64,000 nt of DNA from an uncultured Rickettsiales bacterium (GCA_964504165.1 CAZDDH010000006.1:4235-68234); one strand, 5' to 3'; positions 10,034 to 25,834 are shown, counted from the stretch's first letter. The notes: a model not told the origin generated them from the letters alone. Made by a program: numbers and translations.

Positions 10034-10209
10034 GGGCCAGAGGTGCAGCGTTTCTAGACAACCATGATCCAAATGTCAACATCCGCGAGTGCGGTGGAAC
10101 CGGTTGACGGGCGAGGAATCACCCTGGCTGTGCTGTCAACACAGGGGTAACGTAGGTATCGTCAGGGGTCGAAACAATCCAGGAGCAATTGGGGCAGGGA
10201 GGCAACACC

Positions 10210-10554: not shown

Positions 10555-10637
10555 TCCCTCTTTCGGTCCAACACGCCGTTCCGTGGGGCTTCGCTCCTCT
10601 GGCCGGGCCCACCCCATCGGCCAATAAAGACTCCCAA

Positions 10638-10666
10638 TTGCACTGCTTTCTTCTGTCCTGTAATAT
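10638..10666 (+). promoter_or_regulatory. Sigma70-like promoter candidate TTGCAC – 17 nt – TAATAT upstream of lipoprotein paralog B
   Basis: -35 TTGCAC (10638-10643), 17-nt spacer, -10 TAATAT (10661-10666), about 60 nt upstream of the ATG at 10725. Confidence 0.35.
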
Positions 10667-10724
10667 CCCGCCGAACCTGGGGCGGGTGTGCCCAAAGCGG
10701 CCCCACCGCCAGCCGGAGGGATTC

Positions 10725-11165
10725 ATGATCGGCAGGTTTATCGGTCTGGTAGCGGCGATTTCGTTGAGCCTAACTGCGGTTGGCTGTGGCGGAACATGTG
10801 ACGAACTGTGCAACTTTGCGGCGGATTACTACGAAGAGTGCCTGCCGCAATGGAACACGACCTGGGACGGGCTCGCTCCCGAGGGCGAGGCCTGGGAGAA
10901 CAAGGGCGACTTCCGCGCAGCCTGCCTCGACAGCGCCGAGTCGGGCCGCGCCCAGGCCGGCGATTGTTGCCTCGATCAGGAAGACGAGGACAAGATCGAG
11001 GAGTGCGAGGCCAACACCTTGCTGGCCATCGAGCGCAACTGTGAGGACACCAAGGAACTCTACCGCCAGCCGTGCTCCGAGTACTGGCAGGAGGTCTACA
11101 TCCTCGGTGGCCCCGCGTTCCCGGAAGAAAACCCCACCTGCTCCGAGGAAGAGACCGAGGAATAG
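10725..11165 (+). CDS. Small cysteine-rich lipoprotein (146 aa), paralog B
   Basis: MIGRFIGLVAAISLSLTAVGC lipobox. Shares C-x3-C-x3-C...EEC..WNTTW with paralog A, has 10 further Cys and an acidic tail. GGAGGG RBS at 10715-10720. Confidence 0.65.
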   Translation: MIGRFIGLVAAISLSLTAVGCGGTCDELCNFAADYYEECLPQWNTTWDGLAPEGEAWENKGDFRAACLDSAESGRAQAGDCCLDQEDEDKIEECEANTLLAIERNCEDTKELYRQPCSEYWQEVYILGGPAFPEENPTCSEEETEE

Positions 11166-11475
11166 GCCCGTCGGCCGGGGTTTCACCCGACCTCAGGGCC
11201 CCCCTCTCCTGCCCTCTTCCCTTGCAACGGAACCACGAAAACCCAGGGGCCGGTGACGGCCGGTACGGGGGTCATTGCTCGCGCTCGCGCGCGTTTGCGC
11301 TTGCGGCCATTCGGTAATTGTTCGGTATCATTACCGTCGTTGACATGCCGAGAGGGGCACGACTATCCTTCTGACCAGTGTGAGTTGACGCTGCTGCGAG
11401 TACGTTCTTATGGAAGTTTGTACGTGTGCGCGCGGACGGGACAATCACAAAACCACCCTGAGGTAGGGGCTCACG

Positions 11476-12192
11476 ATGACAGGTAAAATGCACGGATTCC
11501 TGGGGATGTTCATTCTCAGCGCGATGTTGGTTCTGCCGGGATGGGCTGCAGCGCAGCCAGCTGAGGGCGAAGAGGGAAGCGGGGACGAATCCGCCGACGG
11601 GGAGGCGCCGGCCGAACCGGAGGCCACGACCACAGAAGCAGCGCCCGAGGTGGAGGAGATTTCCATCACCCGCGAGCTGCGTACGGTGGAACAGAACGTG
11701 AACGTGCTCAAGGAGAAGGTCTTCCGCTCCAAGGCGCGGTTGCTGCTCCTCGAGGAGAAGGTCATCAAGGGGGTGGTCGCAGGCGCCAAGGCCTCGCTGA
11801 TCCACGTCAACAAGCTGGGCAACTCCTACCGCATCGAGTCCATCTCGTACTTCTTCGACGGCACGCCGATCTTCGAGAAGATCGACAGCGGCAGCGAGTT
11901 CCACCGCAAGAAGGAGCTCAAGATTTTCGAGGGCAACATCCCCCCCGGCAGCCACACGATTACGGCCAACATCGTGGTCAAAGGGCACGGCGGCAGCGAG
12001 TTCTCCTATCTCAACGACTACACGTTCAAGGGCCAGGAGAGCTACTCGTTCATCGCCGAGGACAACAAGACAGCGGTCATCCGTATGGTCCTCGAGAAGA
12101 AGGGCGGCACATTCGGCAAGTTCGAGGATGGGCCGGCGATGAAATTCGAACAAGAAGACGTGGGCAACATCCCCGGTGGTGACGAGTCCTAG
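11476..12192 (+). CDS. Secreted protein (238 aa): signal peptide, acidic low-complexity linker, coiled coil, β-rich C-terminal domain. First gene of the TPR/motor locus.
   Basis: MTGKMHGFLGMFILSAMLVLPGWAAAQ signal peptide, then an E/A/G-rich segment, a heptad region (VEQNVNVLKEKVFRSKARLLLLEEKV) and a β domain. RBS GAGGTAGGGG lies 7 nt upstream of the ATG. Confidence 0.7.
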   Translation: MTGKMHGFLGMFILSAMLVLPGWAAAQPAEGEEGSGDESADGEAPAEPEATTTEAAPEVEEISITRELRTVEQNVNVLKEKVFRSKARLLLLEEKVIKGVVAGAKASLIHVNKLGNSYRIESISYFFDGTPIFEKIDSGSEFHRKKELKIFEGNIPPGSHTITANIVVKGHGGSEFSYLNDYTFKGQESYSFIAEDNKTAVIRMVLEKKGGTFGKFEDGPAMKFEQEDVGNIPGGDES

Positions 12193-12224
12193 CGTGACCC
12201 TCAGGATGGGAGGCGCGGCCCTTC

Positions 12225-14702
12225 ATGCGAAGAAGCGCAGATAAAAAAATAAGACTATGTTCGGCCCTCCGTGGAGCGACCTTGTTGCTCCTGGGGGTCT
12301 GCTGGATCGCCGGGAACGCAGCGGCCGCCCAACGTGCGGGTGGCCGGGGCGGCTCCTTGAACCCGACCACACACCTGGATCTCCTCGTCGAGCGGTTGAA
12401 CATCCTCGAGATCCAGTTCAACAACCTGCGGGACTCGGTGCGTGGTGCCCCCCTCAGCCGTTCGCCGGCGGAGGTCAACGACCTGCTCTTCGAGGCGAAC
12501 TTCGCATTCCTCACCGAGGACTACGAGCGCTCCTCGTTGCTGTACTTCTCCTTGCTGGAGAACGGCGACCTGGTCGGCCACGGCGAGGAGGCCGAGGCCC
12601 AGTACTTCCTGGCCGAGAGCCTGTTCCTGGCGCGCAATTTCTATCCGGCCCAGGAGGCCTTCAAGAATATCGTATCCATCGGTCCGACCCATCCGCACTA
12701 CGACGGCGCGGTGATGAAGCTGATCGAGATCTGTGGGTTCACCGGCGACGTGGAGCTCTTCAACTACTACTACAACAACTTCTTACAGACGACGCGGTCC
12801 GGAAGCGGCCCGTCTGCTCTGCGCGTGCGGTACGCGCTGGGGAAGACCCTCTATCGCCAGGGCAAGCTCGACGAAGCCAAGGCGATGTTCAACGAGTTCC
12901 CCAAGGGCAGCACCTACACCTCGCAGGCGCGGTACCACTACGGCGAGATCCTGGTGAAGGAGGGCTACGAGATGGCCCTCGCCGGCAACACCGAGGCGGC
13001 CGAACAGCGCTACCGGGCGGCCATGCCCGTGTTCCAGGACGTCATCCAGCTGCCCATCTCCACGGATGAACAGCTGAAGATCCAGCACCTGGCTTATCTG
13101 GCGCTGGGGGCCCTGAGTTTCGAACTCAAGGATCTGCCCGCGGCCATCGCCGCGTACCAGAATATCCCCAATAGCTCCTCGTTCTTCGCCGACTCCCTGT
13201 TCCAGATCTGCTGGGCCTACATCCAGCTCGGCGACTACGAGGGTGCCCTACGGACCATCGATATCTTCTTGCTGGCCTTCCCGGACGACACGCGGGAGCC
13301 GGAGCTGAAGCTGCTCGCGGCTCACCTGCGGGTCAAGCTCAAGAACTACGAAGACGCGGTGACCGAGTACAAGGCCGTCGTCGCCGAGTACGAGGACATC
13401 AAACAGCGCCTGGACGTGCTGGTGGGGTCGGACGTGGATCCCATGGTGTACTTCAACCAGCTGGTGGACGAGTCCTACATCGTGGACGTGAACTACCAGG
13501 TCCCCGAGTTGGCCGCCCGGATGGCCCGCGAGGATCCCCGCCTGGCCAAGGCGGTGGGCGTGGCATCGGACCTCCAGCGGGAGGCCATGGAGATCGCCGA
13601 GGGGCAGGAGACTGTTGCGACCATCGAGGCCGCCGTCTACGCCGAGGACTCGGGCGACCTGATGACCGCCTACCGGGCCAAGCGCCAGGAGATGGATGGC
13701 CTGGACGCTCAGATCCTGGACATGGAGTCGGATCTGGTCATCGTGGAGGCCAACTACCTCATCGACGCGTTGGGGGGCGAGAACGCCGCCGGCATCCAGC
13801 AGATCGTCGAGCGGCGCCGTCAGCTCAGCAGGGAAGTGGCCTCTGTATCGGCCATGTACAGCGATCGCGCCGAGTACCGGGAGGACGTGGAATCCGCGGC
13901 CAAGGCCGTGGACAACGAGGCCTACAAGCTCGAGACGATGGTGGACGACATCCTCGCGCGCCTGGCGGGCAACGAGATCTATCTCAAGACCCAGCTGGCC
14001 AGCGGGGCGATGACCGACGGGGAGGTCCAGGGCCACAAGCTGGCGATCCAGGCACTCCGCGACGAGTTGCGTGAGCATCAGGAGGAGTTCGACAGCATCC
14101 ATCGCGCCATGGCTACCGGTCGTCTGACGGCGAGCCTGGGGGATGAATCGGACGAGACCGAGCAGGGCAAGCGCAAAGAGGTGCGCGCGCAGATGGCGCA
14201 GCTGGCCGAGGACCTGATCGGCTATCGGTCCGGCGTCACCAAGGGGAACGCCCGCCAGTTCTTCGCCTCCATCGACTCCGGTCGCCAGCGGCTGAGGAAC
14301 ATGCGCAACGACGGGCAGAGCATGCGGGTCGACCTGGAGCGCCGTGAACGGGAAGAGCTGGACCAGATCCGCCAGCTGCTCAGCCAGGAGAAGAGCGCCC
14401 TTTCGTCGTATGCCGTCGATGCTCAGCAGTACCGCACCGATAGCACGGACGTCTCTGGCCACATCGCCGAAGCGAGCTTCCGCGGTGTGCAGCGGGAGTT
14501 CGAGGACACGGTGATGCAGGCGGACATGGGGGCCATCGACGTCTTCTGGATGCAAAAGGAGGAGGTCACCACGCAGCGCGAGAACCTGCGTGACGAGCGC
14601 AACGCCATGCTCAAGGAGCTCAAGCGTATGTACTCGGGGCTCCTCGACTTCGACGAGGAAGAAGAGGACGAAGACGATGACACCTGGGGGGTGATCGAAT
14701 GA
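12225..14702 (+). CDS. Periplasmic TPR-repeat / coiled-coil protein (825 aa), GltD/GltE-like scaffold candidate
   Basis: Signal peptide (RLCSALRGATLLLLGVCWIAGNAAAAQ), multiple TPR-like helical repeats, a long C-terminal coiled coil and an acidic tail (DFDEEEEDEDDD). Stop overlaps the next start (ATGA). Confidence 0.85.
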   Translation: MRRSADKKIRLCSALRGATLLLLGVCWIAGNAAAAQRAGGRGGSLNPTTHLDLLVERLNILEIQFNNLRDSVRGAPLSRSPAEVNDLLFEANFAFLTEDYERSSLLYFSLLENGDLVGHGEEAEAQYFLAESLFLARNFYPAQEAFKNIVSIGPTHPHYDGAVMKLIEICGFTGDVELFNYYYNNFLQTTRSGSGPSALRVRYALGKTLYRQGKLDEAKAMFNEFPKGSTYTSQARYHYGEILVKEGYEMALAGNTEAAEQRYRAAMPVFQDVIQLPISTDEQLKIQHLAYLALGALSFELKDLPAAIAAYQNIPNSSSFFADSLFQICWAYIQLGDYEGALRTIDIFLLAFPDDTREPELKLLAAHLRVKLKNYEDAVTEYKAVVAEYEDIKQRLDVLVGSDVDPMVYFNQLVDESYIVDVNYQVPELAARMAREDPRLAKAVGVASDLQREAMEIAEGQETVATIEAAVYAEDSGDLMTAYRAKRQEMDGLDAQILDMESDLVIVEANYLIDALGGENAAGIQQIVERRRQLSREVASVSAMYSDRAEYREDVESAAKAVDNEAYKLETMVDDILARLAGNEIYLKTQLASGAMTDGEVQGHKLAIQALRDELREHQEEFDSIHRAMATGRLTASLGDESDETEQGKRKEVRAQMAQLAEDLIGYRSGVTKGNARQFFASIDSGRQRLRNMRNDGQSMRVDLERREREELDQIRQLLSQEKSALSSYAVDAQQYRTDSTDVSGHIAEASFRGVQREFEDTVMQADMGAIDVFWMQKEEVTTQRENLRDERNAMLKELKRMYSGLLDFDEEEEDEDDDTWGVIE

Positions 14703-17700
14703 AGACCTTCCTCACGCTGGTCCTATGCCTGTGGATGCCAACGGTCGTGCTCGCTCAAGAGGCCGAAGAGGGCGAAGCCCCACCGCCGGCCGCCGAACCC
14801 GTGTACCAGGGCAGCGATACCGACATGGAGCTGTTCCGGACGGCCTACCTGCGTTATTCGGACCGGATGGAGGAGATCCGGGCGGAAATCAAGCGGGTCG
14901 TCACCCATCGCTACGAAGAAGAGCTGCATAACATCCGGTCCAGCTACGACGTGCAGACCGAGGAGAAGGAAGCCGAAGAGCGTGCCGCGCGCCTGGAGGC
15001 CATCCGGGAGCACGAGAACTTCATCTCCAAGTACCCGGACAGCCCGTACACGGCCCACCGCATGTTCCGGCTGGCGACCTTATACCTCGAAGAAACCGAC
15101 TACCAGATGGCCGTGGACAACGCCGACTACCGGATGCTCGAAGAGCAGTTCGACGCCGGTGAGATCAGCACCCTTCCGGAGCCGCCGGGCAAGAACTACG
15201 CCCGCAGCATCCGTCTGTTCAAGCGCCTGACCGCGGACTTCCCGGACTACAAGTACCTGGACGCCACCTACTACTTCTTGGGCTATTGCTACGCGGATGA
15301 ACTGAGTGAACAGCAGGACGACGAGCTGGCCCGGGCCACGTACCACGAACTGGTGGAGCGGTTGCCCGACAGCCGCTATGCGGCCAACGGCCACTTCATG
15401 CTCGGCGAGATCTACTTCGAGGATCTGCAGTTCGACGAAGCCATCGTGCACTACACCGAGGTGATGAACACGGGCGTCGAGGAACTCTACGACCGCTCCC
15501 TGTACAAACTCGCTTGGGCTTACTACCGCAAGGACGATCTGGACAACGCCATCCCGCGCTTCGTCCAGCTCATCGACTTCAGCGACTCGATGATGGTGGA
15601 AGAGGGCAAGGAGAGTCAGCTCAAGCCCGAGTCCTTGAAGTACCTCGCCATCTCTCTGGTGGAGCAAGCGGACGATGCCAACCGAACGCCGATGGGGCGG
15701 GCGGAGGCCTTCTTCGAGGAGATCGGAGATCGCGAGTACAAGTACGAGGTCCTCACCGGCATCGATGACGTGCTGTGGCAGCAGGGACGCTACGACGAGG
15801 AGTTGATGACCCTGGAGCGGCTCCAGGAACTGTACCCATTCAGCCCGGACAACCCGGATTTCCAGTACAAGATCATGAACCTTCACTACCTCAAGGACGA
15901 TCGGGATCCCGAAGCTGCTGTGCAGGCACGTATCGACCTGGTGGAGCGTTTCAAGGAAGGGACCCCCTGGTGGGAGGCCAACAAGGACAACCCCGATGCC
16001 CTGCGGGCTGCCGCCAAGTACATCGAGGAATCCCTGGGCGACGTCGCCAGGACCTACCACGCCAGCGCGCAGACCAAGTTCACCGAGCCGGGTGAAGAGC
16101 CTGCCAGGTCCGAGTACATCAAGGCCGCGGTGGCCTATCGGGACTACCTGGACCGTTTCCCGTTCGCCAAGGACGCCTACGAGACCCAGTACCAGATCTC
16201 GGACTGCTACTTCTTCGCCGGCGAGTACGAGATGGCCATCGTCGAGTACAAGAAGCTCGACTCCTATCCGGACAAGACCTACCAAGGGGACGTCCTGGAC
16301 TCCCTGGCGTTCGCCTACGAAGTGCTGATGAACAAGAACGAGGGGGACTACAAGGCCAACCCGTCGTCACTGGCGAACATGGAGATCCCGCTGGGGGACA
16401 AGCCCGAGCAGATCCCGGTCATCCCCATCAGCGAAGCGCGGATGAACTTCATCAAGGCGGTGGACGACCTCTACGCCTTCGATCCGACGCACAAGGACAT
16501 CCCTCGTAAGCAGTACATCGTCGCGGAGATCTTCTACTACCACAACCAGATCGACGAGGCCCGCAGGCGGTTCACCGACATCCTCGACAAATACCCCGAG
16601 AAGTCGTTCGCCGCGTACGTGGCCGGCTACATGGTGGACAGCTACCACAAGACCGGGGACGTCAAGAAGGTCCTGGAGCTGTGCGAGCACTACCTGCAGG
16701 TGGAGATGCTGGGTGACGACCCCGAGTACTGGGCCGAGCGCCTGGCCTTCTACAAGGTCAAGCGGCGCAACTCCCAGTTCAAGCTCGCCGAGCTGGCGGG
16801 TGTGACGGACAAGAAGGAGTCGGCGCGACTCTTCGAGGCGTACTACCGGGAGTATCCGGACAACGAGAATGCGGCCATGGCCCTGTTCAACGCGGCGTTG
16901 CAGTACGAGAACGCCGGGAACACCGTCAAATCCCACTCCCTGTACGAGGAGTTCCTCGACGTCTACGGCAAGGACGAACGCGCACCGAGCATCTTCTTCC
17001 GCATCGCCGGGCAGTACGAGCGCACCATGGACCTGGAAAAGGCCATCGACTACTACACTAAGGTCGCCGCGCTGCACCCCAACTACAAGGATCCGGAGAC
17101 GGGCGAGAACTACACCGCCAACGCCTACTACAACGCCGCCTTCCTGAGCCTGGGGCTCAAGAAGTATGACCAGGCCGCCAAGTTCTTCCTCAAGTACGCT
17201 TCCTATCCGGACGTCGAGGATATCCACGAGGCCTACTGGCGCGCTGCCGAGGCGTACAACGACGGGGGCAACTCCAAGAAGGCCCTCAACCAGTACCAGG
17301 AGTACAACCGGCGCTACGGCGACAAAGAGATCAATCGGACGATGGAGTCCCTGATCAAGCAGCACAAGATTTACAAGGAGCAGAACAACTCCCGCATGAT
17401 CGCCAAGATCGAGGAGCAGCTGCTGGAGGCCTACCACAAGGCACGTGAGGCGGGCGTCGAGCTCAACACCGTCAGCGTGGCCGCTGCCTCTGGCTATGCC
17501 TTCCCGACCCTGGAGACCAGCCTTTTCGAGTACGACAAGATCAAGCTGCCCAACACCATGAAGCAGGAGGACCTCGCGCCGGTCCTGGAGGAAAAGAAGG
17601 AGATGGCCAAGGTGATCCAGGAGGAGGCCAGCACGTTCATGGCCACCTACCCGGACTTCGACCACATCATGGCCTGCTTGTACATCAAGGCGTCCGTGAT

Positions 17701-18049
17701 CCAGAAGTACGCCGAGATGATCTACGCCTGGGACCCGCCCTACGACCGCAAAATTTTCGGACCCAAGACCGAGGACTCGATGTTCGAGTTCAACGACATC
17801 GTCGACGAGATGAAGCTCGAGCTGGCCGAGCCCTTCGAGATCGAGGCCGTCAAGTTGTTCGAGATGGTGCTCGCCAAGGCGCGGGAGATGAAGAAGAACT
17901 CCCCGTGGGTCGACAAAGCCCGCGAGGCGCTGCACAAGGTGGACCCGAACACCTACCCGATGCTCAAGCCCATCAAGGTTCACTACGACGATTCCGTCTA
18001 CGAGCCCATGCCGCAGGCCGTGGCCGCGCCGGTGGAGGAGACACATTGA
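14699..18049 (+). CDS. Periplasmic TPR-repeat protein (1116 aa), GltD/AgmU-like scaffold candidate
   Basis: Signal peptide MKTFLTLVLCLWMPTVVLAQ. Dense TPR-like repeats throughout (e.g. YYFLGYCYADEL.., YKLAWAYYRKDDLDNAI..). Translationally coupled to both neighbours. Confidence 0.88.
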   Translation: MKTFLTLVLCLWMPTVVLAQEAEEGEAPPPAAEPVYQGSDTDMELFRTAYLRYSDRMEEIRAEIKRVVTHRYEEELHNIRSSYDVQTEEKEAEERAARLEAIREHENFISKYPDSPYTAHRMFRLATLYLEETDYQMAVDNADYRMLEEQFDAGEISTLPEPPGKNYARSIRLFKRLTADFPDYKYLDATYYFLGYCYADELSEQQDDELARATYHELVERLPDSRYAANGHFMLGEIYFEDLQFDEAIVHYTEVMNTGVEELYDRSLYKLAWAYYRKDDLDNAIPRFVQLIDFSDSMMVEEGKESQLKPESLKYLAISLVEQADDANRTPMGRAEAFFEEIGDREYKYEVLTGIDDVLWQQGRYDEELMTLERLQELYPFSPDNPDFQYKIMNLHYLKDDRDPEAAVQARIDLVERFKEGTPWWEANKDNPDALRAAAKYIEESLGDVARTYHASAQTKFTEPGEEPARSEYIKAAVAYRDYLDRFPFAKDAYETQYQISDCYFFAGEYEMAIVEYKKLDSYPDKTYQGDVLDSLAFAYEVLMNKNEGDYKANPSSLANMEIPLGDKPEQIPVIPISEARMNFIKAVDDLYAFDPTHKDIPRKQYIVAEIFYYHNQIDEARRRFTDILDKYPEKSFAAYVAGYMVDSYHKTGDVKKVLELCEHYLQVEMLGDDPEYWAERLAFYKVKRRNSQFKLAELAGVTDKKESARLFEAYYREYPDNENAAMALFNAALQYENAGNTVKSHSLYEEFLDVYGKDERAPSIFFRIAGQYERTMDLEKAIDYYTKVAALHPNYKDPETGENYTANAYYNAAFLSLGLKKYDQAAKFFLKYASYPDVEDIHEAYWRAAEAYNDGGNSKKALNQYQEYNRRYGDKEINRTMESLIKQHKIYKEQNNSRMIAKIEEQLLEAYHKAREAGVELNTVSVAAASGYAFPTLETSLFEYDKIKLPNTMKQEDLAPVLEEKKEMAKVIQEEASTFMATYPDFDHIMACLYIKASVIQKYAEMIYAWDPPYDRKIFGPKTEDSMFEFNDIVDEMKLELAEPFEIEAVKLFEMVLAKAREMKKNSPWVDKAREALHKVDPNTYPMLKPIKVHYDDSVYEPMPQAVAAPVEETH

Positions 18050-19668
18050 TGCGCCACCACCTACCTGTCCTGGCCGCCATTTTGGTGTGCATGCCGTTCC
18101 TGGGCGGGGTGCAGCAGTGCGGGAGCACTCAGCCGACGAACTCGGGTGATCAGCAGCCCGACGCGGGCGCCACGACCACGGACGCCACACCCACGAGCGA
18201 AGGCGGCACCGCGACCGACGAGGCGGGGGCACCCGCCGAACCGGGAGCCGTTGACCCGGAAACCGGCGAGCCCGTGCCGGCCGCCCCCCCCGCTCCCCCG
18301 GCCGAGACCGCGGAGCAGATCGCCCGGCGTGAGTTCGACGATGGGGTGATGGCGATGAACCTGGTGCCCCCCCAGTTGCCAACTGCCGTCGCGCGTTTCG
18401 AGAGCGTGGTGTCGCGTGTGCCCGACTGGGCCCAGGGCCACTACAACCTGGGCCTCGCCTACATGAAGCAAGGCAACGTGACCAAGGCCATCCCTTCGCT
18501 GGAGAAGGCCACGAGCAAGGATCCCACCATCGGTGAGGCATGGGTTGCGTTGGGTGTGTGCTACGAGCGCCAGGAGCGGCGCGGTGCGGCGTTGGATGCA
18601 TACTCGCAGTGCATCAAAAATGACCCGGAGAACGCCGACTGCCGGCTCGGCTCGGTGCGCATGGACTTTGCTGCCGGCGCCAGCGCGGATGAGATCGTGG
18701 ATCGGATCCGGGACATCCTGCGTATCAACTCCACCTCGGTAGGGGCGTACCTGTTGCTGTCCCAGGCTTACATGAAGCAGGGGGAACCCCAGCTGGCCAA
18801 GTTCGCCCTGGAGAAGGCCCGCCGGGCGAATCCCCTCGCCGAGCAGAATCCGACGCTGCACTGTAATCTGGGCATGATCTACCGCGAACTCGGGCTGGAT
18901 TTCGAGGCCAAACTCGAGTTCGAGAAGGCCATCGAGCTGGACCCCAATCACATCCAAACGCGGGTCAACCTGGCCAACCTCAAGCTCCATGATCTGGATT
19001 TCGAGGGAGCCCGCGATCTGGCTGCGCCCGCGGTCCAGCTGGATCCCAACCACGTAGGCGCCCGGCTGGCACTGGCCGTTGCCAAGCGCGGTACCGGTGA
19101 TCTGCAGGGCGCGGTGACCGATCTGACCTATGTGCTGGAGAACGATCCGGGCAACAAGGATGCGCTGTTCAACCTCGGCGTGCTCTACTCGGACTTTTCT
19201 CGTGAGAACGACAAGGCCGTCCAGACGTACGAAGAGCTGATCCGGATTCTGCCCGAGGGGGAAGACCGGGATCAGGTCCAGAGTTACATCGACGAGGTCC
19301 GCAAATCCCAGGAGCGCGAGCTGCGGGATCGGGAGCGCGAGCAGCGTCGCAAGGAACGTGAGGCGCAGCGTAAGGCTGATGAGGAGGCCCGTGCCGCCGA
19401 AGAGGCCGCCGCCGCCGCTGCCGAAGCTGCTGCGGCCCAGGAGGCCGCCGCCGCTGCCGAAGCTGCTGCGGCCCAGGAGGCCGCCGCCGCCGCCGAGGAA
19501 GCAGCTGCCGCTGCCGCCGAAGCCGCCGCCAACGAGGCAGCGGGTGCCGAGGCTCCTGCTGCCGAGGCTCCTGCTGCGGGGACGCCGCCGGCAGAAGGTG
19601 AAGGGTCGCAACCCGCAGCCGAGGAAGAGACCCCCGCGGAACCAGCCCCGGCGGGCGGGAGCGAGTAG
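18049..19668 (+). CDS. Periplasmic TPR-repeat protein (539 aa) with a C-terminal Arg/Glu coiled coil and an Ala/Glu-rich low-complexity tail
   Basis: Signal peptide MRHHLPVLAAILVCMPFLGG. TPR repeats (HYNLGLAYMKQGNVTKAI.., AWVALGVCYERQERRGAAL..). Tail REREQRRKEREAQRKADEEARAAEEAAAAAAEAAAAQEAAAAAEAAAAQE... ATG at 18049 overlaps the previous stop by 1 nt. Confidence 0.8.
   Translation: MRHHLPVLAAILVCMPFLGGVQQCGSTQPTNSGDQQPDAGATTTDATPTSEGGTATDEAGAPAEPGAVDPETGEPVPAAPPAPPAETAEQIARREFDDGVMAMNLVPPQLPTAVARFESVVSRVPDWAQGHYNLGLAYMKQGNVTKAIPSLEKATSKDPTIGEAWVALGVCYERQERRGAALDAYSQCIKNDPENADCRLGSVRMDFAAGASADEIVDRIRDILRINSTSVGAYLLLSQAYMKQGEPQLAKFALEKARRANPLAEQNPTLHCNLGMIYRELGLDFEAKLEFEKAIELDPNHIQTRVNLANLKLHDLDFEGARDLAAPAVQLDPNHVGARLALAVAKRGTGDLQGAVTDLTYVLENDPGNKDALFNLGVLYSDFSRENDKAVQTYEELIRILPEGEDRDQVQSYIDEVRKSQERELRDREREQRRKEREAQRKADEEARAAEEAAAAAAEAAAAQEAAAAAEAAAAQEAAAAAEEAAAAAAEAAANEAAGAEAPAAEAPAAGTPPAEGEGSQPAAEEETPAEPAPAGGSE
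19414..19485 (+). repeat. In-frame perfect 36-bp tandem duplication encoding an AAEAAAAQEAAA repeat
   Basis: gccgctgccgaagctgctgcggcccaggaggccgcc occurs twice back-to-back (19414-19449 and 19450-19485), inside the CDS 18049..19668. Confidence 0.8.
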
Positions 19669-19705
19669 GAAATGGGATGCCCCGAGGACCTCGTGCGTGG
19701 TCAAG

Positions 19706-19732
19706 AGACCGTCAAACAAGAGACGGTTTGTC
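19706..19732 (+). terminator. Weak hairpin/terminator candidate downstream of the third TPR gene
   Basis: ACCGTC-aaacaaga-GACGGT is a 6-bp stem with an 8-nt loop, followed by TTTGTCG. It lies 40 nt after the stop at 19668. Confidence 0.3.
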
Positions 19733-19819
19733 GAACATGCGCAACTAGTCCGCGGGACAGCACGTTGGATGGGTTATAACCGTCGCGTTTGATGGTTTGG
19801 AAAAGCGCTGTGAGCGTGG

Positions 19820-19848
19820 TTGTGCCAGGTCTGCGAGTTCCCTATAAT
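19820..19848 (+). promoter_or_regulatory. Sigma70-like promoter candidate TTGTGC – 17 nt – TATAAT upstream of the motor sub-operon
   Basis: -35 TTGTGC (19820-19825), 17-nt spacer, consensus -10 TATAAT (19843-19848), about 50 nt upstream of the GTG at 19897. Confidence 0.4.
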
Positions 19849-19896
19849 GGGATGCTCTTGGGCTAGGACCGGAACCGAAAAAGAGGAGCAATATCG

Positions 19897-20154
19897 GTGA
19901 GTTTGGTACGTTTCAGCCGATCGATAATGCTCGGGGCGATCGCGGTCGTCCTGCTGTGCTGTGCCCCCGTGGGCCAGGCACAACAACGTAAAAAAATCGT
20001 CATAGAAGAGGCGGAACAGGTTGAAGGTACGGTTCAGAAGCCCCAGGTGACGTACATTGTCACTCGCCAGGACATCGAGGACCATGAGCAGTTGAAGCTG
20101 GACAAGAGCTTCGTACCCAAGATCGTCGAGTCTGTGGACAAGGAACCTTTCTGA
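19897..20154 (+). CDS. Small secreted or membrane-anchored protein (85 aa), hypothetical
   Basis: GTG start with RBS AAGAGGAG 6 nt upstream. N-terminal hydrophobic segment MLGAIAVVLLCCAPVGQAQ followed by a charged tail. Confidence 0.5.
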   Translation: MSLVRFSRSIMLGAIAVVLLCCAPVGQAQQRKKIVIEEAEQVEGTVQKPQVTYIVTRQDIEDHEQLKLDKSFVPKIVESVDKEPF

Positions 20155-20244
20155 ACGAATTAGAGGATCGAACATTGAGCGGCCGTGGACTACGTGCCGT
20201 TCAGTGAGATACGGATACAAGTTCATTCCAAGGAGGATTTCGGA

Positions 20245-20898
20245 ATGGGAAGCATGGTTGAGTTCTTCAGTAAGGGTGGACCGTTCATGTACGGGATCTT
20301 GGGCGTGTGGGTTATCGCCCTGGCGACCATCATCGAGCGGTTCTACTTCATCTTCTTCAGGTACAACCTAAACGGCGCCGCCTTCATGGCTCAGATCCAG
20401 AAGCTCGTGATGGCGAACAACATCGACCGCGCCATCAAGCTGTGCAACGCAGAGGCGAACGCCGCGTTGAGCCGCGTGCTCAAGGCAGGCCTCACCCGCG
20501 CCAACCGCAGCACGTTGGAGATCCAGAACGCTGTGGACGAGGCCACGCTGGAGGTCATGCCTCTGGTGACCAAGCGCACCCCGATGCTGGGTATGTGGGC
20601 CAACGTCGCCACCCTGACAGGTCTGCTGGGAACCATTTCCGGTCTGATTCAGGCGTTCAAGGCCGTAGGTGCCGCATCCGCCGAACAGAAGCAGGCCCTC
20701 TTGGCTTCCGGTATTTCCATCGCCATGTACACCACGATGTTCGGTCTCATCGTGGCCATCCCGACCATGGTGTTCCACGCCATCATCCAGGGTCGCACGA
20801 CCAAGGTGATCGACGACGTGGACCAGTACTCGGTGAAACTGGTCAACCTGCTCAGTGCTCGTCAGCGTGGTTCGCTGAAGGAGTCTGAAGGTCAGTAG
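20245..20898 (+). CDS. MotA/TolQ/ExbB-family proton-channel protein (AglR/TolQ-like)
   Basis: MGSMVEFFSKGGPFMYGILGVWVIALATIIERFYF... is a typical ExbB N-terminus and first TM, with two more TMs near the C-terminus (ISIAMYTTMFGLIVAIPTMVFHAII). AGGAGGA RBS at 20231-20237. The track's in-frame GTG at 20185 is an alternative start that cannot be excluded. Confidence 0.9.
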   Translation: MGSMVEFFSKGGPFMYGILGVWVIALATIIERFYFIFFRYNLNGAAFMAQIQKLVMANNIDRAIKLCNAEANAALSRVLKAGLTRANRSTLEIQNAVDEATLEVMPLVTKRTPMLGMWANVATLTGLLGTISGLIQAFKAVGAASAEQKQALLASGISIAMYTTMFGLIVAIPTMVFHAIIQGRTTKVIDDVDQYSVKLVNLLSARQRGSLKESEGQ

Positions 20899-20998
20899 AT
20901 CGGTCTGCTGGGCTTGAGCGTGGTGTCCTGAATGGGGCATCACAGTCGGCTAGCGAACGCGGCCCAATGGCCGCCGCCGTAGAAACCTGGAGAGCCAA

Positions 20999-21568
20999 AT
21001 GAGTGCTGCCGCGAATCGTAAAAAAGGCGCCATTCAGCAGAAGGTCGAGCCACCAAATATGGTGCCGATCATGAACCTGATGACGATTCTCATCCCGTTC
21101 ATCCTGCTGTCGGTACAGTTCGTTCACCTCGCGGTGATCGACAGCTCCCTGCCGGCCATTGGAGCGCCCAAGGCCACATCGGAGACCGTGGACGACAAAC
21201 CCCCGCTGATGCTAACGGTGGCCGTCACCGACCGAGGATTCATCGTGGGTGGAAACGCGGCCATTCTCTCTACAGGTGAAGAAGAGGAAGCCGGACAGAT
21301 CACGGATGTTGCCCAGGCCGTCGAGCGCGAGCCGACCATCCCTGTGGATAACGAGGGCAACCATCAATACGAGAAGCTCACCGAGCTGCTCGTCAAGGTG
21401 AAGGCCGAGTATCCGGATGAGCAGAATGTCATCCTGATACCGGAGTCCGAGATCGTCTACGAAGTCATCATTGGGACCATGGACGCCACGCGAGACCACG
21501 AACCCGAGGGAGCCGAAGAGAAAGAAATGCTCTTCCCCTTCGTGGTCATCGCCGGTGGCGCACAGTAG
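20999..21568 (+). CDS. ExbD/TolR-family protein (AglQ/AglS-like), first copy
   Basis: Short cytoplasmic N-terminus and a single TM (MVPIMNLMTILIPFILLSVQFV) with a conserved acidic residue context, then a periplasmic domain. GGAGAG RBS. Confidence 0.82.
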   Translation: MSAAANRKKGAIQQKVEPPNMVPIMNLMTILIPFILLSVQFVHLAVIDSSLPAIGAPKATSETVDDKPPLMLTVAVTDRGFIVGGNAAILSTGEEEEAGQITDVAQAVEREPTIPVDNEGNHQYEKLTELLVKVKAEYPDEQNVILIPESEIVYEVIIGTMDATRDHEPEGAEEKEMLFPFVVIAGGAQ

Positions 21569-21577
21569 GAGCCAGCA

Positions 21578-22090
21578 ATGCCAAGTCCAGCAGAGCTCCG
21601 CGCTAAATCGAAGAGCAGGGCCGGCGAAAAGCAGGAACTGTCCATCACGTCGCTCATGGACATGATGACCATCATCCTGGTTTTCCTCCTGAAGAGCTAC
21701 TCCGTGGAAGATATCCAGGTGAAGCCTTCAGCTGACCTGCGGTTGCCCGCATCCTCCTCCAAAAAGGCACCCGAGGTCGCCGTCAACCTGGTGGTTTCCA
21801 AGCGGACCATTTCAGTAGACGGGGTCAAGGTCATCGATGTCAGTGACATGGCCGTGGCCGAGGAATACAAGCGTGGGACCATGATCACGCCGCTGTACGA
21901 TACGTTGCAGGAGAAGGCAGACGATGCCAAGGCAATCGCTGCTCGCAACGTGAATCAGCCGTTCACGGGACGCATGCTCCTCCAGTGCGATGAGAAGGTA
22001 CCTTTTTCGTTGCTTCGCGAGGTGATGTACACTGCCGGCCAGGCGCAGTTCGGTGAGTTCAAGTTCGTGGTCTACAAGAACAGTGAATAA
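21578..22090 (+). CDS. ExbD/TolR-family protein, second copy
   Basis: ITSLMDMMTIILVFLLKSY is the ExbD-type TM with the conserved Asp (LMDMM). Periplasmic ExbD fold. Confidence 0.82.
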   Translation: MPSPAELRAKSKSRAGEKQELSITSLMDMMTIILVFLLKSYSVEDIQVKPSADLRLPASSSKKAPEVAVNLVVSKRTISVDGVKVIDVSDMAVAEEYKRGTMITPLYDTLQEKADDAKAIAARNVNQPFTGRMLLQCDEKVPFSLLREVMYTAGQAQFGEFKFVVYKNSE

Positions 22091-22228
22091 CTGGGATTAG
22101 GACCTGAGCAGAACTCGTAAACCCTGCTATGATAGAAGGGCGTGCTCTCCGGGACGGGAGCACTGAAGTTCCGGGTCATGAAGGCCCGAAGCTGAATAAG
22201 GAACCGAACAGCACCTGAAGGGACGTCG

Positions 22229-23578
22229 ATGGGCGCCAAGGCTCAACCAAGCCACAAGGTCCTTCGGATCGGCATCATCCAGGGCGGGAAGATTCTCGAA
22301 GAGCGGTTGATCCGTTCAGGCGAGAACGTGACCGTGGGTGAATCCACGAGGAACACGTTCGTTCTTCCCAAATCGTTTCTGCCCAAGCAGTTCAAATTGT
22401 TCGTGGCCAAGGGGCCAGCGTACGCGCTGGCTTTCACGGACAAGATGCAGGGCAAGATCTCCATCAACAACGCGGTGCAGCCACTCAACAAGTTGGCTGG
22501 CAACGTCGCCAAGAAGCGGGGCGACGCCTACTACCTGAGCTTGACTGAGAAGAATCGAGGCAAGGTCCAGATCGGACCGGTCACGATCTTGTTCCAGTTC
22601 GTACAGGCGCCACCTGAACCCAAGAGGGTCGCTGTCAGCTTCAGCCCGTTCAGTGTCGGGCAAGTGGACTGGGTCTATCTGGGGTTCTTCTTCTTCTCGT
22701 GCATCGTCAACGGTGCCGCGTACATCTATGTGGACTCACAGCCGACGCCTGGGAAAGTCAGTATCGAGGACATCCCGGATCGGTTCACCCAGGTCTTCTT
22801 CGATGAAGAGACCGATGTCCAGGTCCCCGAGGAAGAACCCGAAGAGGATGGACTCGGCGAGGCTGAGGAAAAACCCGAGGACACCGGCGAGCCTACTGAC
22901 GCCGGCGGCGAGGCCGATGAGGGAGAGCCCGAAGAGCAAATGTCGGCCGAGGAGATCCGCGACCAGCGCAAGGCCGAACTGATGCAACAGGGGCTCGCTG
23001 CACTCATCGGTACGACAGGCGATACCGCGTCGGGCGATGCTGTGGCAGACCTCCTAGCCGATGGTGGGAGCTTGTCCGGCGACCTGGACGCAGCGCTCGC
23101 ATCCGCGGACGGCATCAAGGTTGCCCGTCGAGGCGAGGACACCACACTACGCGAGGGTGGATCCGGAACCGGCAAGGTCGGGAGTATCACCGACATGAGT
23201 GGTGCCGGGGGCGGAACAGCCGGCAGCGGCGAGAAGGTCCAGAAACAGGTCGAGGCCAAGGTCGGCGGCAACCTGGAGATTACCTTCGGTGACGCGGGCG
23301 ATGTCAGTGCGGTCAAGAAGTACGTGTCGCGCAAGAAGGGCCAGATCAAGGCCTGCTACGAGGAGCAGCTCAAGGGCAACCCCGATCTGCAAGGCAAGGT
23401 GGAAGTGACCTGGACCGTGCTGCCCAGCGGCGGCGTGTCCGGGGTTCACGTGGCCAGCAACAGCACGGGGAACAAGGGCCTGGAAAGCTGCATCATTCGC
23501 CGCATCAACCGTTGGAAGTTCCCCGAAGGGGCCGACGAGTTCGAGATCACCTACCCCTTCAACTTCTTCTCCGGATGA
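22229..23578 (+). CDS. FHA-like N-terminal domain – single TM – acidic/Pro and Gly-rich linker – TonB C-terminal domain protein (GltG/NfsG-like energy transducer candidate)
   Basis: The N-terminus (VLRIGIIQGGKILEERLIRSGENVTVGESTRNTFVL...GKISINNAV) resembles an FHA fold. TM is WVYLGFFFFSCIVNGAAYIYV. Then an acidic linker (PEEEPEEDGLGEAEEKPEDTGEPTDAGGEADEGEPEE) and a Gly/Ser-rich stretch. The C-terminus KACYEEQLKGNPDLQGKVEVTWTVLPSGGVSGVHVASNSTGNKGLESCIIRRINRWKFP matches the TonB-C pattern. Confidence 0.78.
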   Translation: MGAKAQPSHKVLRIGIIQGGKILEERLIRSGENVTVGESTRNTFVLPKSFLPKQFKLFVAKGPAYALAFTDKMQGKISINNAVQPLNKLAGNVAKKRGDAYYLSLTEKNRGKVQIGPVTILFQFVQAPPEPKRVAVSFSPFSVGQVDWVYLGFFFFSCIVNGAAYIYVDSQPTPGKVSIEDIPDRFTQVFFDEETDVQVPEEEPEEDGLGEAEEKPEDTGEPTDAGGEADEGEPEEQMSAEEIRDQRKAELMQQGLAALIGTTGDTASGDAVADLLADGGSLSGDLDAALASADGIKVARRGEDTTLREGGSGTGKVGSITDMSGAGGGTAGSGEKVQKQVEAKVGGNLEITFGDAGDVSAVKKYVSRKKGQIKACYEEQLKGNPDLQGKVEVTWTVLPSGGVSGVHVASNSTGNKGLESCIIRRINRWKFPEGADEFEITYPFNFFSG

Positions 23579-23755
23579 GTCGCTACTTTTTTTGACCGCC
23601 TGACGACTCAAATTTTTTCACAAAGTGTTATCCGCGCAGCGAATGAGCGGTTATATCAACTGCCAATTCAGGTTCAATCGATCGTGCGGGGCAGTTGACA
23701 CGATGGCTCTCCAGCCGTACGCTGAGAGTTCCGTCGGGGTTGCGGAGGATTCTTG

Positions 23756-24313
23756 ATGAGAGTTAACGGAACAGGCCATTGGCCCGGAAGATTCCTGGGC
23801 ATCATGCTGCTCGCAGCTTGTTTGGTAGCTCCAATTGCCCAAGCAGCCGAGGGCGATCCAGCGGATACCGCCAACATGACGCCGCGGCAGCAACTCGATT
23901 TTGCTGAAGAGGCGGTCTCCGACGTCAAGGGCGGGGCCAGGCACGTATTGAAGATGGTGGAGCAGGCACAGAAGAACAAAGACGTGCTGCTGCTCAATTG
24001 CCTCAATGAAAAATTGGCTGGGCTGAAGGCTCTGTTGAAGGTTGTTGAGGACGCGGACATGGCCATGCAAGAGGCGATGGCACGCGAGAACAACGATCTA
24101 GCAAATCACGAATTCCAAAAAGTCACCATGGCCCAGCAGCAGGCATCTCAGCTGGTCGTGGAAGCAGAGGCTTGCGTTCCGGAGGTCGGTGTTTCGTACG
24201 CCGGGCACGGCCGCTGGTCAGTGGATATGCCTGAAGAGCAAGATGATGCGGATGACTACCTCTCGGATCCCAGTGGTTTCGAACGGGCTCCTGAGAAGTC
24301 GCCCTTCAATTGA
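23756..24313 (+). CDS. Secreted α-helical hypothetical protein (185 aa)
   Basis: GGAGGA RBS 6 nt before the ATG at 23756. Signal peptide FLGIMLLAACLVAPIAQAAEG. A TTG at 23753 is an alternative start. Confidence 0.6.
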   Translation: MRVNGTGHWPGRFLGIMLLAACLVAPIAQAAEGDPADTANMTPRQQLDFAEEAVSDVKGGARHVLKMVEQAQKNKDVLLLNCLNEKLAGLKALLKVVEDADMAMQEAMARENNDLANHEFQKVTMAQQQASQLVVEAEACVPEVGVSYAGHGRWSVDMPEEQDDADDYLSDPSGFERAPEKSPFN

Positions 24314-24505
24314 GGGTTGAAGAGGGACGTTCCATCGGATAAAAATCATTCATCAACGCGGTGCTGAGGATGTGCGATGTGGGGCCGCGTGCGGGGATTT
24401 CAACGACAGCCGGATAAGACAGGAAGTCAAAATCGATCGGGATTGAAGAGGGACCCTCTGGGTTTCACACGGACAGGAAGATCTGTAGTAGTGTCTGACG
24501 TTGGA

Positions 24506-25834
24506 ATGAGCAGTATGAAGAAACGACTGTTGAGATTGGCTGGGCTGTGCGTGGGGGTGTCCTTGTGGATGTACCCCACCGTGTCTGCGGATGCTGCTGA
24601 AGATGATGAGGGGATTCGCGCTGGAGCCAGCGGGCGTTTTCAGCCCGGGATCGAGATTGGTGCAAGCTACGATAGTAATGTCTACCGGTCTGAATCCAAT
24701 GGCGAGGGAGACCTCGTTCTTCGCGTGGAACCGCACCTCCGCTACATCCTGCGTTCCGAGAACGCGGATTTCGAGGTGTACGGCGAATACCATCTGAAGC
24801 AGTACACCGGGGTCGCCGTAGACCACCAGAATGACTCCGTCGGGCACAAGGACCTGAACGTCTATGCCAACTACCTGGCTGGGCTCGATCTGGTCACGAG
24901 GCCCAAGGGGCAGTTCTCGTTCCTGTTCGGTGACAAATTGAGCAGGCTCTCCCGTGAGTTCGATAACGTCGATCTGCCCCAGTTCCGCTACTCCTTGATG
25001 GACAGCCTCAATAACAAAGCTCACATCGGAGTAGAGGGCCGGCCAGGGACCTCCTTGCGTATTCGGGGTACGTTCAACATCGATCTGGCGCGATACACCG
25101 GGGCCAACGCCCAGGGGTTCGGCGAGAGTTCAGATCGCCGGCTGTACGGCCAGGCCTTCGATTTCTACGGCAACATCGAAGTTGGCTGGAAATTCTTCCC
25201 CAAGACACAGGCGATGTTGATTGCCGACTTCGGCCACATCATGTGGGAACCGGATCTTCAGGATTCTTTCACCGTTGCCGGCTGCGATGAGTCTCTGTGT
25301 TCCATGAACCAGTACGACTCCGACCACTGGCGGGTTTGGCTGGGGGTCCAGGGCAAGATCAGCCGCAAGCTGGCTCTGCAGGGCCTGTTCGGGTACGGCA
25401 ACGCCTACTTTCCAAACAGCTCGGAAGGTGTCGGGGGAAATCTGCGCGGCGCGGACGGTATCCTGGGTAAGGTTCAGTTGCACTGGAATCCGGCCCTCAC
25501 TCAGAAGATCACAATCGGCTTCCTGCGCGACTACCGGTTTCTGTATTTCTCCAACTACTACATCACGACGTCGCCCTACGTGAGATACCGCGGGCAGATC
25601 GCCGGATTCATCCTGCCGACAGCCGAGTTCAAGTACCTCTACCGGACCATCGCCGGCGACGTGGACCGTACGGACCACGAGATCAAGGCCCGTGCGGGTG
25701 TGGACTTCCAGATCCGAGACTTCTTCTCCGTGGGCGTGGACTACACTTACTGGTCCATCGTCGCTTCCTCGGACGGCAGTGAACCGACCTTCTCGGACCA
25801 CATGATCGGCCTGACCATCGAACTCGGCTACTGA
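24506..25834 (+). CDS. Outer-membrane β-barrel protein, hypothetical (GltA/B/H- or NfsA/B-like candidate)
   Basis: Signal peptide MSSMKKRLLRLAGLCVGVSLWMYPTVSADA. Alternating amphipathic β-strands with aromatic girdle residues and a C-terminal ...IGLTIELGY strand. ATG at 24506; ATG at 24515 is an alternative start. Confidence 0.7.
   Translation: MSSMKKRLLRLAGLCVGVSLWMYPTVSADAAEDDEGIRAGASGRFQPGIEIGASYDSNVYRSESNGEGDLVLRVEPHLRYILRSENADFEVYGEYHLKQYTGVAVDHQNDSVGHKDLNVYANYLAGLDLVTRPKGQFSFLFGDKLSRLSREFDNVDLPQFRYSLMDSLNNKAHIGVEGRPGTSLRIRGTFNIDLARYTGANAQGFGESSDRRLYGQAFDFYGNIEVGWKFFPKTQAMLIADFGHIMWEPDLQDSFTVAGCDESLCSMNQYDSDHWRVWLGVQGKISRKLALQGLFGYGNAYFPNSSEGVGGNLRGADGILGKVQLHWNPALTQKITIGFLRDYRFLYFSNYYITTSPYVRYRGQIAGFILPTAEFKYLYRTIAGDVDRTDHEIKARAGVDFQIRDFFSVGVDYTYWSIVASSDGSEPTFSDHMIGLTIELGY

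Follow-up and report, generated by a model that had tools for sequence, protein, structure and literature searches.

A 'core complex' composed of the Group B genes gltC, gltD, gltE and gltG together with aglR, aglQ and aglS was defined by Luciano et al. (2011), who found it clustered in Geobacter, in some Gamma- and Betaproteobacteria and in Fibrobacter, where its function is unknown; 'expanded' core complexes were recognised in Bdellovibrio, and Myxococcus xanthus possesses the paralogous clusters G3 (= nfs), G4, G5 and M2 (PMC3169522). In Geobacter sp. M21 the complex occupies GM21_0438-0445 and reads, with protein lengths in amino acids (aa), C(626)-D(1090)-E(272)-(extra gene)-R(211)-ExbD(166)-ExbD(165)-G(505), and M. 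xanthus G4 comprises MXAN_1919-1923, encoding 447/91/490/1111/809 aa; no function is known for G4, G5 or M2, and a mutant in MXAN_1922, the gltD homologue of G4, glides normally (PMC3169522). Full-text literature searches found no later functional work on the locus tags of G4 and M2. Here we describe a cluster of eleven genes at positions 11476-25834 of a 64,000-nucleotide stretch of DNA deposited under an uncultured Rickettsiales bacterium (GCA_964504165.1 CAZDDH010000006.1:4235-68234; the whole stretch is hereafter the window), which very probably encodes a self-contained, envelope-spanning machine driven by the proton-motive force (PMF), belonging to the core complex/G4-paralogue branch of the Agl/Glt family and hosted by an uncultured bacterium of Myxococcota type.

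The eleven open reading frames (ORFs) are co-directional and follow the order X–GltC-like–GltD-like–GltE-like–GltF-like–AglR-like–2×ExbD-like–GltG-like–Y–18-strand outer-membrane (OM) barrel, X and Y being two secreted proteins described below. A sequence-only reading of the same DNA had proposed an Agl–Glt/Nfs-like machine; the family stands, with GltC, GltE, GltG and CglF as best models, and so does the expected synteny, since the order recurs across related loci and matches gltD-H and nfsC-H, but the branch is that of G4 and the core complex. The window series C-D-E-x-R-Q-S-G is identical to that of GM21_0438-0445 and Gura_3070-3077, although the window E protein is about twice the length of its Geobacter counterpart, and because the cluster adds X, Y, a GltF homologue and the 18-strand OM barrel, all lacking from the core complex, it qualifies as an 'expanded' core complex. 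With M. xanthus G4 it has in common the C-D-E-F-G series, an almost exact match in protein size (449/85/539/1116/825 aa in the window for G/F/E/D/C) and a short GltG-like protein without the canonical FHA domain, and in the versions of G4 from metagenome-assembled genomes (MAGs) of Myxococcaceae, X, Y and the large barrel occupy the positions that they have in the window. The two differ in that the window cluster encodes a motor of its own, with one AglR-like and two ExbD-like proteins, between F and G, where G4 has none, and in their surroundings: G4 lies next to mglBA and has a gene for a cyclic-nucleotide-monophosphate (cNMP)-binding protein after G, whereas the window cluster lies next to ftsK-lolA and is without the cNMP-binding gene.

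These correspondences were placed in context by a pattern scan in which each GTDB species was represented by a single genome and which gave 241 relatives; the best 80 loci, all from MAGs, were examined. When the window proteins are compared by tblastn, the full order X-C-D-E-F-R-ExbD-ExbD-G-Y-H recurs in dozens of species, and the arrangement is thus not due to chance. Among the 73 loci with context, the motor is next to G in 50 of the 59 that can be evaluated, with corresponding figures of 55/62 for the barrel and 51/62 for Y. In 35 of the 48 loci that can be judged on this point, ftsK lies no more than 10 kb downstream, with lolA behind it in most of these, and this linkage is kept even where transducer identity is down to 35-40% (loci including L002-L006, L012 and L016-L017).

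The bridge to G4 is provided by three Archangium/Myxococcaceae MAG loci (L064, L078 and L074), which read X-C-D-E-F-G-(cNMP-binding gene)-Y-H, with the motor absent. Their cluster begins 2 nt past the gene for an MglA-like GTPase, itself behind MglB (Roadblock/LC7; 300-2082 in L064), and mglBA and the cluster may be co-transcribed. Because they lie directly downstream of mglBA, and mglA is MXAN_1925, these loci are, as far as neighbourhood can tell, the G4 cluster. In a neighbour-joining tree of the transducer they nest inside the family, and the insertion of the cNMP-binding gene is common to them and to the motor-bearing loci L050, L056, L062, L070, L071 and L080. Together with L027 and L059 these six loci make up one sub-clade, in which the insertion between the transducer gene and Y measures about 5.5 kb (about 11.4-17 kb in locus coordinates); among its products is a cyclic-nucleotide-binding protein of 147 aa, which the Myxococcaceae G4 loci have as well. 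From the nesting, the common insertion and the identity of G4, the window cluster is therefore best placed in the G4/core-complex branch with its motor retained, and would be neither the Glt gliding system nor the Nfs sporulation system itself.

The labels on the records of these loci include Myxococcota, 'Deltaproteobacteria' and Oligoflexia, and others such as uncultured Rickettsiales or Enterobacterales, which we take to be placeholder taxonomy. Within the window, a PilZ-type protein with the TIGR02266 'gmx' paralogous domain (a family that is presumably typical of Myxococcus), a Ser/Thr kinase bearing an AAA_16 domain and a protein that contains MopE motifs together fit a Myxococcota origin.

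Family membership was assessed against the 18,950 models of NCBIfam, using equivalog cut-offs as membership thresholds. Models of the Myxococcus gliding transducer are the top matches for four of the proteins: GltC for the 825-aa protein (6.4e-21, 75 bits; cut-off 450), GltE, described as a 'TPR repeat lipoprotein', for the 539-aa protein (8e-27, 94 bits; cut-off 225), GltG (NF033760) for the 449-aa protein (4e-44, 151 bits; cut-off 650) and CglF (NF033764) for the 85-aa protein (1.5e-4, 22 bits; cut-off 90), CglF being another name of GltF (PMC4488436). The three large proteins with tetratricopeptide repeats (TPR), which had been equated with GltD, GltE and GltG, are better taken as counterparts of GltC, GltD and GltE, and GltG is the transducer and not a scaffold. 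Nor are the 825-aa and 539-aa TPR proteins nearer to unrelated families, GltC and GltE being their best matches.

GltG is the best full-length model for the 449-aa transducer, aligned over residues 14-446, and this protein also passes the models for the AgmX/PglI C-terminal domain (NF033768; 95.2 bits vs 40) and the TonB C-terminus (TIGR01352 tonB_Cterm; 29.4 vs 27.1 bits), with a sub-threshold match to Pfam TonB_C (21 bits vs 24.6). An AlphaFold2 model from 12 homologues has a confident all-beta domain at residues 10-126, with a predicted local distance difference test score (pLDDT) of 83-91, a transmembrane (TM) helix at 148-170, a disordered acidic/Gly linker of about 155 aa (about 185-341) and, at 343-448, a second confidently modelled domain of alpha/beta type, the periplasmic AgmX/PglI domain, in which two Cys are conserved. 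In Foldseek searches of the PDB the best matches are FHA domains, among them 1uht, 2lc1 and 1r21, with a probability of 1.0 and TM-scores to target of 0.57-0.64; TonB C-terminal domains (6sly, 7zc8, 1u07) come next. The protein has no Pfam FHA (PF00498) match; M. xanthus GltG, of 640 aa, has a canonical FHA domain at residues 26-90, and the GltG model aligns to the window protein from model position 206 onward only. Taken together, these observations imply that the window protein is without GltG's canonical FHA domain and retains a second, cryptic FHA-fold domain, as modelled. This N-terminal domain is the best-conserved part of the transducer family. The FHA–TonB-C transducer of the sequence-only reading consequently keeps its TM segment, acidic/Gly linker and TonB C-terminal domain (TonB-CTD)-like head, with FHA at the level of fold only; among the Pfam profiles it had named, those for MotA_ExbB, ExbD and TPR are matched in the cluster, FHA is not, and TonB_C falls short.

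Exhaustive HMMER searches produced 391 cluster representatives of transducer relatives at E<=1e-30, and the homologues number more than 480, all metagenome- or MAG-derived. Nearly all of the 150 best listed relatives are about 430-500 aa long and matched over their full length, so they appear to constitute a distinct 'short GltG' subfamily. Three longer proteins of about 920-940 aa (P0149, P0150 and P0156) contain three transducer-matching stretches, with the full-length match in the C-terminal half, and are possibly GltG-like proteins in duplicated or fused form. The MAGs closest to the window (L007, L009, L010, L011, L013, L014 and L025) also encode a second, stand-alone transducer paralogue at 42-49% identity, followed by a TPR/AAA_16 protein of about 1180 aa and an AAA_16-adenylate/guanylate cyclase protein of about 850 aa, on contigs with a GC content of 0.70-0.74 compared to 0.63 in the window; these were rejected as parts of the system, there being no motor or Glt genes beside them.

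The motor is encoded by three adjacent genes at 20245-22090. As had been read from the sequence, it consists of an ExbB-type channel of 217 aa, matching PF01618 (MotA_ExbB) at 87 bits, and two ExbD copies, the 189-aa and 170-aa proteins matching PF02472 (ExbD) at 31 and 46 bits; an alternative GTG start at 20185 would extend the channel protein to 237 aa. The channel subunit is 92-95% identical in its closest relatives, and its nearest solved relatives are TolQ (4e-8) and then ExbB (1e-4). The standing of the motor proteins relative to TolQR and ExbBD was judged by NCBIfam equivalog scores with E. coli TolQ as control: the channel scores 56 bits on the TolQ model (cut-off 221, control 311) and 29/206 on ExbB, and the ExbD-like proteins score 17/127 bits on TolR and 19/216 bits on ExbD. 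Since all of these lie far under their cut-offs, the motor proteins do not behave as bona fide TolQR or ExbBD; membership in those clades is one of the findings that the sequence-only reading had named as refuting its proposal.

Alignment to E. coli TolR and ExbD shows that the transmembrane Asp is kept in the 170-aa protein (Asp28) and replaced in the 189-aa protein by Asn (Asn26). The substitution D28N in AglQ abolishes proton conductance in M. xanthus, where AglR binds both GltG and NfsG and the M2 channel MXAN_3003 binds neither (PMC3858216). Across the related loci Asn is found in the first ExbD copy in 51/58 and Asp in the second in 57/63, the pattern being swapped in a sub-clade (L027, L050 and L080) in which the first copy has Asp and the second Gly or Ala; L070 has Asp in its first copy also. 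In essentially every locus, then, exactly one ExbD copy carries the Asp. Two loci contain a second AglR-like/ExbD-like pair downstream of lolA in which the Glu of TM3 is kept (20170-21284 in L068 and about 20247 in L079); its AglR-like member was rejected as a true TolQ, at 49 bits on the TolQ equivalog model, and the pair may be another orphan motor.

The periplasmic part of the machine is dominated by the three TPR proteins, for all of which (825, 1116 and 539 aa) the TPR content predicted earlier was recovered with Pfam. The GltC-like protein has a signal peptide, an N-terminal TPR region and a long coiled-coil/acidic C-terminal half, and is close in size to MXAN_1923 (809 aa) and Hoch_6494 (823 aa). 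The GltD-like protein, 1116 aa against the 1111 aa of MXAN_1922, aligns over more than 90% of its length, at 28-34% identity, with the D gene of G4-type loci; in NCBIfam it meets generic TPR models only, as does the G4-type D protein of L064, and it passes the YbgF/CpoB TPR model with 133 bits against a cut-off of 90. The GltE-like protein ends in an Ala/Glu-rich tail, and in an N-terminal comparison its Cys24 aligns with the canonical lipoboxes of its homologues; because of this position, the protein, previously read as having a signal peptide, is predicted to be a lipoprotein, like GltE.

Smaller components complete the list. The product of 19897-20154, formerly read as a small anchored protein, does exist but is a secreted homologue of GltF/CglF, within a family of 75-85 aa in which 21 of 28 members match the CglF model, the best at 9.6e-8. 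Both this protein and Y have signal peptides of the type cleaved by signal peptidase I. Y had been called a secreted protein, and this can be refined to a soluble periplasmic protein with two invariant Cys (C83 and C141). The GltF-like protein and Y share a conserved C-terminal PF across dozens of homologues (...[EK]PF-COOH in the former and ...SPF-x in the latter), and these tails could dock into the TPR scaffolds, which we offer purely as a suggestion. The gene for X has an SD-like (Shine-Dalgarno) GAGGTAGGGG ahead of its ATG, and wherever the DNA of a related locus reaches far enough upstream (L008, L015, L061, L064, L068, L074, L078 and L079), a homologue of X precedes the GltC-like gene. 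Profile searches found no Pfam, NCBIfam or PDB relative of either X or Y, and by these comparisons X appears to be the conserved first gene of the cluster and Y a conserved member of it, each outside known families.

The last gene encodes the OM beta-barrel. Its 442-aa product matches BBP2_2 (6.5e-7) and OMP_b-brl in Pfam and, weakly, TIGR03016 (PEP-CTERM/EpsL-type outer-membrane proteins), and its AlphaFold2 model has 18 long strands, with a pLDDT of 79.9 and a predicted template modelling score (pTM) of 0.73. Foldseek retrieves generic OM barrels only, namely TonB-dependent transporter barrels, AlgE, Occ channels and porins. The barrel proposed from the sequence is upheld by this model, but its equivalence to GltA/B/H is not, given lengths of 442 aa and 209-275 aa respectively.

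That these are genuine genes is indicated by several lines of evidence. All eleven are ORFs whose starts coincide with, or are a few codons off, those given in the sequence-only reading (Table 1); GC content at third codon positions (GC3) is 0.74-0.90, as expected of genuine genes in DNA of about 63% GC; the same genes appear in an independent gene call by the Joint Genome Institute (JGI) on an identical metagenome contig (3300007510, Ga0105013_1002892); and homologues occur in at least 73 related loci. The C and D genes meet at ATGA (14699-14702), as had been claimed of this first junction, and D and E at TGATG (18047-18051), a 1-nt start/stop overlap; since the junctions overlap and both have an SD-like purine run upstream of the start, translational coupling of C to D and of D to E is genuine. 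Between 9.8 and 26.2 kb only two sigma-70-like sites were found, about 110 nt before X and about 80 nt before ftsK, a pattern compatible with one operon, yet not above chance. Rfam and tRNA scans found no RNA gene inside the cluster.

Table 1. Genes of the cluster and neighbouring features in the window, with the main evidence for each
Feature	Position	Strand	Evidence or remarks
X, secreted, 238 aa	11476..12192	+	signal peptide, acidic stretch, coiled coil, beta-rich C-terminal part
GltC-like periplasmic protein, 825 aa	12225..14702	+	TPR (Pfam); best NCBIfam model GltC
GltD-like periplasmic TPR scaffold (putative), 1116 aa	14699..18049	+	multiple TPR and YbgF-type matches
GltE-like TPR lipoprotein (predicted), 539 aa	18049..19668	+	best NCBIfam model GltE; Cys24
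GltF/CglF-like small secreted protein, 85 aa	19897..20154	+	NF033764 CglF
AglR-like MotA/TolQ/ExbB proton-channel subunit, 217 aa	20245..20898	+	PF01618
ExbD/TolR-like stator subunit 1, 189 aa, Asn26	20999..21568	+	PF02472
ExbD/TolR-like stator subunit 2, 170 aa, Asp28; AglQ-equivalent	21578..22090	+	PF02472
Short GltG-like transducer, 449 aa	22229..23578	+	NF033760, NF033768, TIGR01352, AlphaFold2 (AF2), Foldseek
Y, secreted helical protein, 169-185 aa	23756..24313	+	two invariant Cys; conserved across loci
OM 18-strand beta-barrel, about 420-442 aa, ends ...ELGY	24506..25834	+	BBP2_2, OMP_b-brl, AF2
ftsK	26093-28816		downstream of cluster
lolA	28836-29495		downstream of cluster
MiaB/RimO-type radical-SAM gene	29499-30851		downstream of cluster
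PilZ-type protein, 115 aa	30855-31202	-	TIGR02266 'gmx' paralogous domain, 94 bits vs cut-off 69

Several observations weigh against placing the cluster in the Agl/Glt family as a member of the G4 branch. The scores on the Glt models (75/450, 94/225, 151/650 and 22/90 bits) all lie well under the equivalog cut-offs, and for this reason the cluster proteins would be distant paralogues, not orthologues, of the gliding proteins. The assignment of the 1116-aa protein as GltD-like is drawn from position, size and the 28-34% identity, NCBIfam being without a GltD model. The channel subunit keeps the Thr of TM2/TM3 but has Ile at the position of the TM3 Glu of TolQ and ExbB. The 442-aa barrel is unlike the M. 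xanthus proteins GltH, GltA and GltB (209-275 aa) and is without demonstrated homology to them. The link from the window to G4 runs through MAG loci, gene neighbourhood, published protein sizes and locus tags, and the branch as a whole is known from genes alone, its hosts being uncultured.

From the parts list, folds, topology signals, gene order, conservation and family ties described above, and by analogy with characterised relatives, the assembly, stoichiometry and energy transfer of the machine may be sketched as follows. The ExbB-ExbD and TolQ-TolR complexes have an established stoichiometry of 5:2. By analogy, the AglR-type channel and the ExbD-like pair would form a 5:2-type inner-membrane stator containing a heterodimeric ExbD with one Asp, such that only the 170-aa copy (Asp28) would carry protons, Asn26 occupying that place in the 189-aa copy. 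The work of the motor would be passed to the bitopic short GltG-like protein, as suggested by the binding of AglR to GltG and NfsG, and the transducer's linker of about 155 residues and TonB-CTD-like head would reach into a periplasmic scaffold. This scaffold would be made up of the GltC-, GltD- and GltE-like TPR proteins, the last as a lipoprotein, with the GltF-like protein, X and Y, and would be joined to the 18-strand OM barrel.

As to what such a machine does, we moderately favour a non-motility task at the OM or cell surface over gliding, for three reasons: G4 is dispensable for gliding, the window contains no gene for GltI, GltJ, GltK or CglB, and the ftsK-lolA neighbourhood is conserved. 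The machine might, for example, move or anchor some component of the surface or the envelope, as the Agl-Nfs and Tol-Pal systems do.

It seems unlikely, by comparison, that the locus is the actual gliding engine of its host, a functional equivalent of Agl-Glt that works through focal-adhesion-type complexes, as has been proposed for the expanded core complexes of Bdellovibrio. The families are the same: the AglRQS-type motor, the GltG-type transducer with its AgmX/PglI domain, the presumed GltC/D/E-type TPR proteins and also GltF, whose gene belongs to Group A and occurs in Myxococcales and Bdellovibrionales only, are common to Agl-Glt and the window cluster, as is the presumed PMF-driven transmission of force to the OM. 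Motor and transducer sit in one cluster, as they do in Bdellovibrio, which glides without GltH/I/J/K, and in Myxococcaceae the orthologous cluster starts 2 nt past mglA, the gene for the motility polarity GTPase. However, M. xanthus can glide without MXAN_1922, the gltD homologue of its G4 cluster; among the large ORFs of the 64-kb window there is no GltI, GltJ or GltK, no small barrel of GltA/B/H size and no CglB-type adhesin, the GltJ model being matched only through the common C-terminal domain; the transducer is without the canonical FHA domain that GltG of Agl-Glt has in its N-terminal part; and the vertical linkage to ftsK-lolA resembles a housekeeping neighbourhood.

An Nfs-like role, in which the machine moves or compacts an exported surface polysaccharide (a coat or capsule) around the cell, is likewise improbable in our estimation. 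Agl-Nfs is also encoded by a single cluster in the order C-D-E-F-G-H, parallel to nfsC-H, with the OM barrel last and an AglRQS-type motor; the sole sequence-family hints of the window barrel are to BBP2 and to PEP-CTERM/EpsL-type OM proteins of polysaccharide systems, and AlgE, an 18-strand polysaccharide exporter, is among its structural matches. These hints are nonetheless weak, covering short stretches at E values of 4e-4 to 6.5e-7, and the Foldseek matches are to generic barrels. Neither polysaccharide synthesis or export genes nor sporulation or Exo polysaccharide genes are found near the cluster. The Nfs cluster starts with NfsA/B and encodes no motor, whereas the window cluster has its own motor and no NfsA/B-like genes upstream; Glt, moreover, has its closest paralogues in the Nfs proteins, and the window cluster belongs with G4.

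It is very improbable that the cluster is a divergent Tol-Pal or ExbBD-TonB system to which TPR proteins have been added, whether it serves nutrient uptake, division or the integrity of the envelope. In favour of such a system are a MotA/TolQ/ExbB channel nearest TolQ among solved structures, ExbD/TolR partners, a bitopic long-linker protein whose TonB-CTD-like head passes TIGR01352, a TPR protein above the YbgF/CpoB cut-off and an envelope-related neighbourhood in the linkage to ftsK, usually with lolA. Yet domain scans of the cluster and the 64-kb window found no TolA, TolB, Pal or TonB-dependent receptor, the equivalog scores lie 4-10 fold under cut-offs that the E. coli TolQ control passes, so that of TonB itself the cluster shares the fold of the C-terminal domain only, the linker is acidic/Gly-rich and not Pro-rich, the cytoplasmic FHA-fold is foreign to TonB and TolA, just one Asp is found in the pair of ExbD paralogues, a dedicated TPR scaffold takes up more than 2,400 residues, the YbgF-type matches are repeated TPR modules seen also in the G4 D protein of L064, and M. 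xanthus has a separate, complete Tol-Pal. The sequence-only reading was accordingly right to hold that this is neither a classical Tol-Pal nor a TonB siderophore module.

Beyond the assignment to the G4/core-complex branch itself, we raise, as a doubtful but possible extension, that the motor-bearing 11-gene cluster might represent the form from which the whole Agl/Glt family of Myxococcota arose, a housekeeping system passed on vertically beside ftsK-lolA and performing a Tol-Pal-like division or OM task with a heteromeric stator of single proton carrier. Glt and Nfs would then be later derivatives, and M2 (MXAN_3003-3005) the detached motor of G4.

Elsewhere in the window, a resistance-nodulation-division (RND) efflux operon lies upstream of the cluster (TetR at 2067-2762, OEP, MFP and AcrB at 6642-9806), with a tRNA-Phe (GAA) gene at 9958-10033 (-) between the two. 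The roughly 1.4 kb that follow (10034-11475) contain a sole, doubtful ORF (277 aa, 10332-11165), which was rejected as a member of the cluster, having no family match, no homologue in the related loci and low GC3. At 60613-62130 (-) is encoded a 505-aa protein with two Thy1 (ThyX) stretches, apparently a tandem-fused flavin-dependent thymidylate synthase, and at 54558-56273 (+) a 571-aa protein with a Tim44-like domain and a C-terminal zinc ribbon.

Systems of this kind were already described in 2011, and the locus is an unusually complete and well-preserved addition to them, not a new kind. The functions of the core complex and of the M. xanthus paralogues G4, G5 and M2 have been open since then, and through the locus and its roughly 70 relatives the G4 branch emerges as a full unit of eleven genes, with X, Y and a large OM barrel, components not counted before, among its products; in most uncultured Myxococcota lineages the dedicated motor is still part of the unit. 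The one-Asp rule across two ExbD subunits and the linkage to ftsK-lolA are also of value. For M. xanthus itself several hypotheses follow: M2 may serve as the motor of G4, MXAN_1924 and the downstream Y and H genes may be parts of G4, and G4 would be expected to have an envelope or division phenotype and not one in motility.

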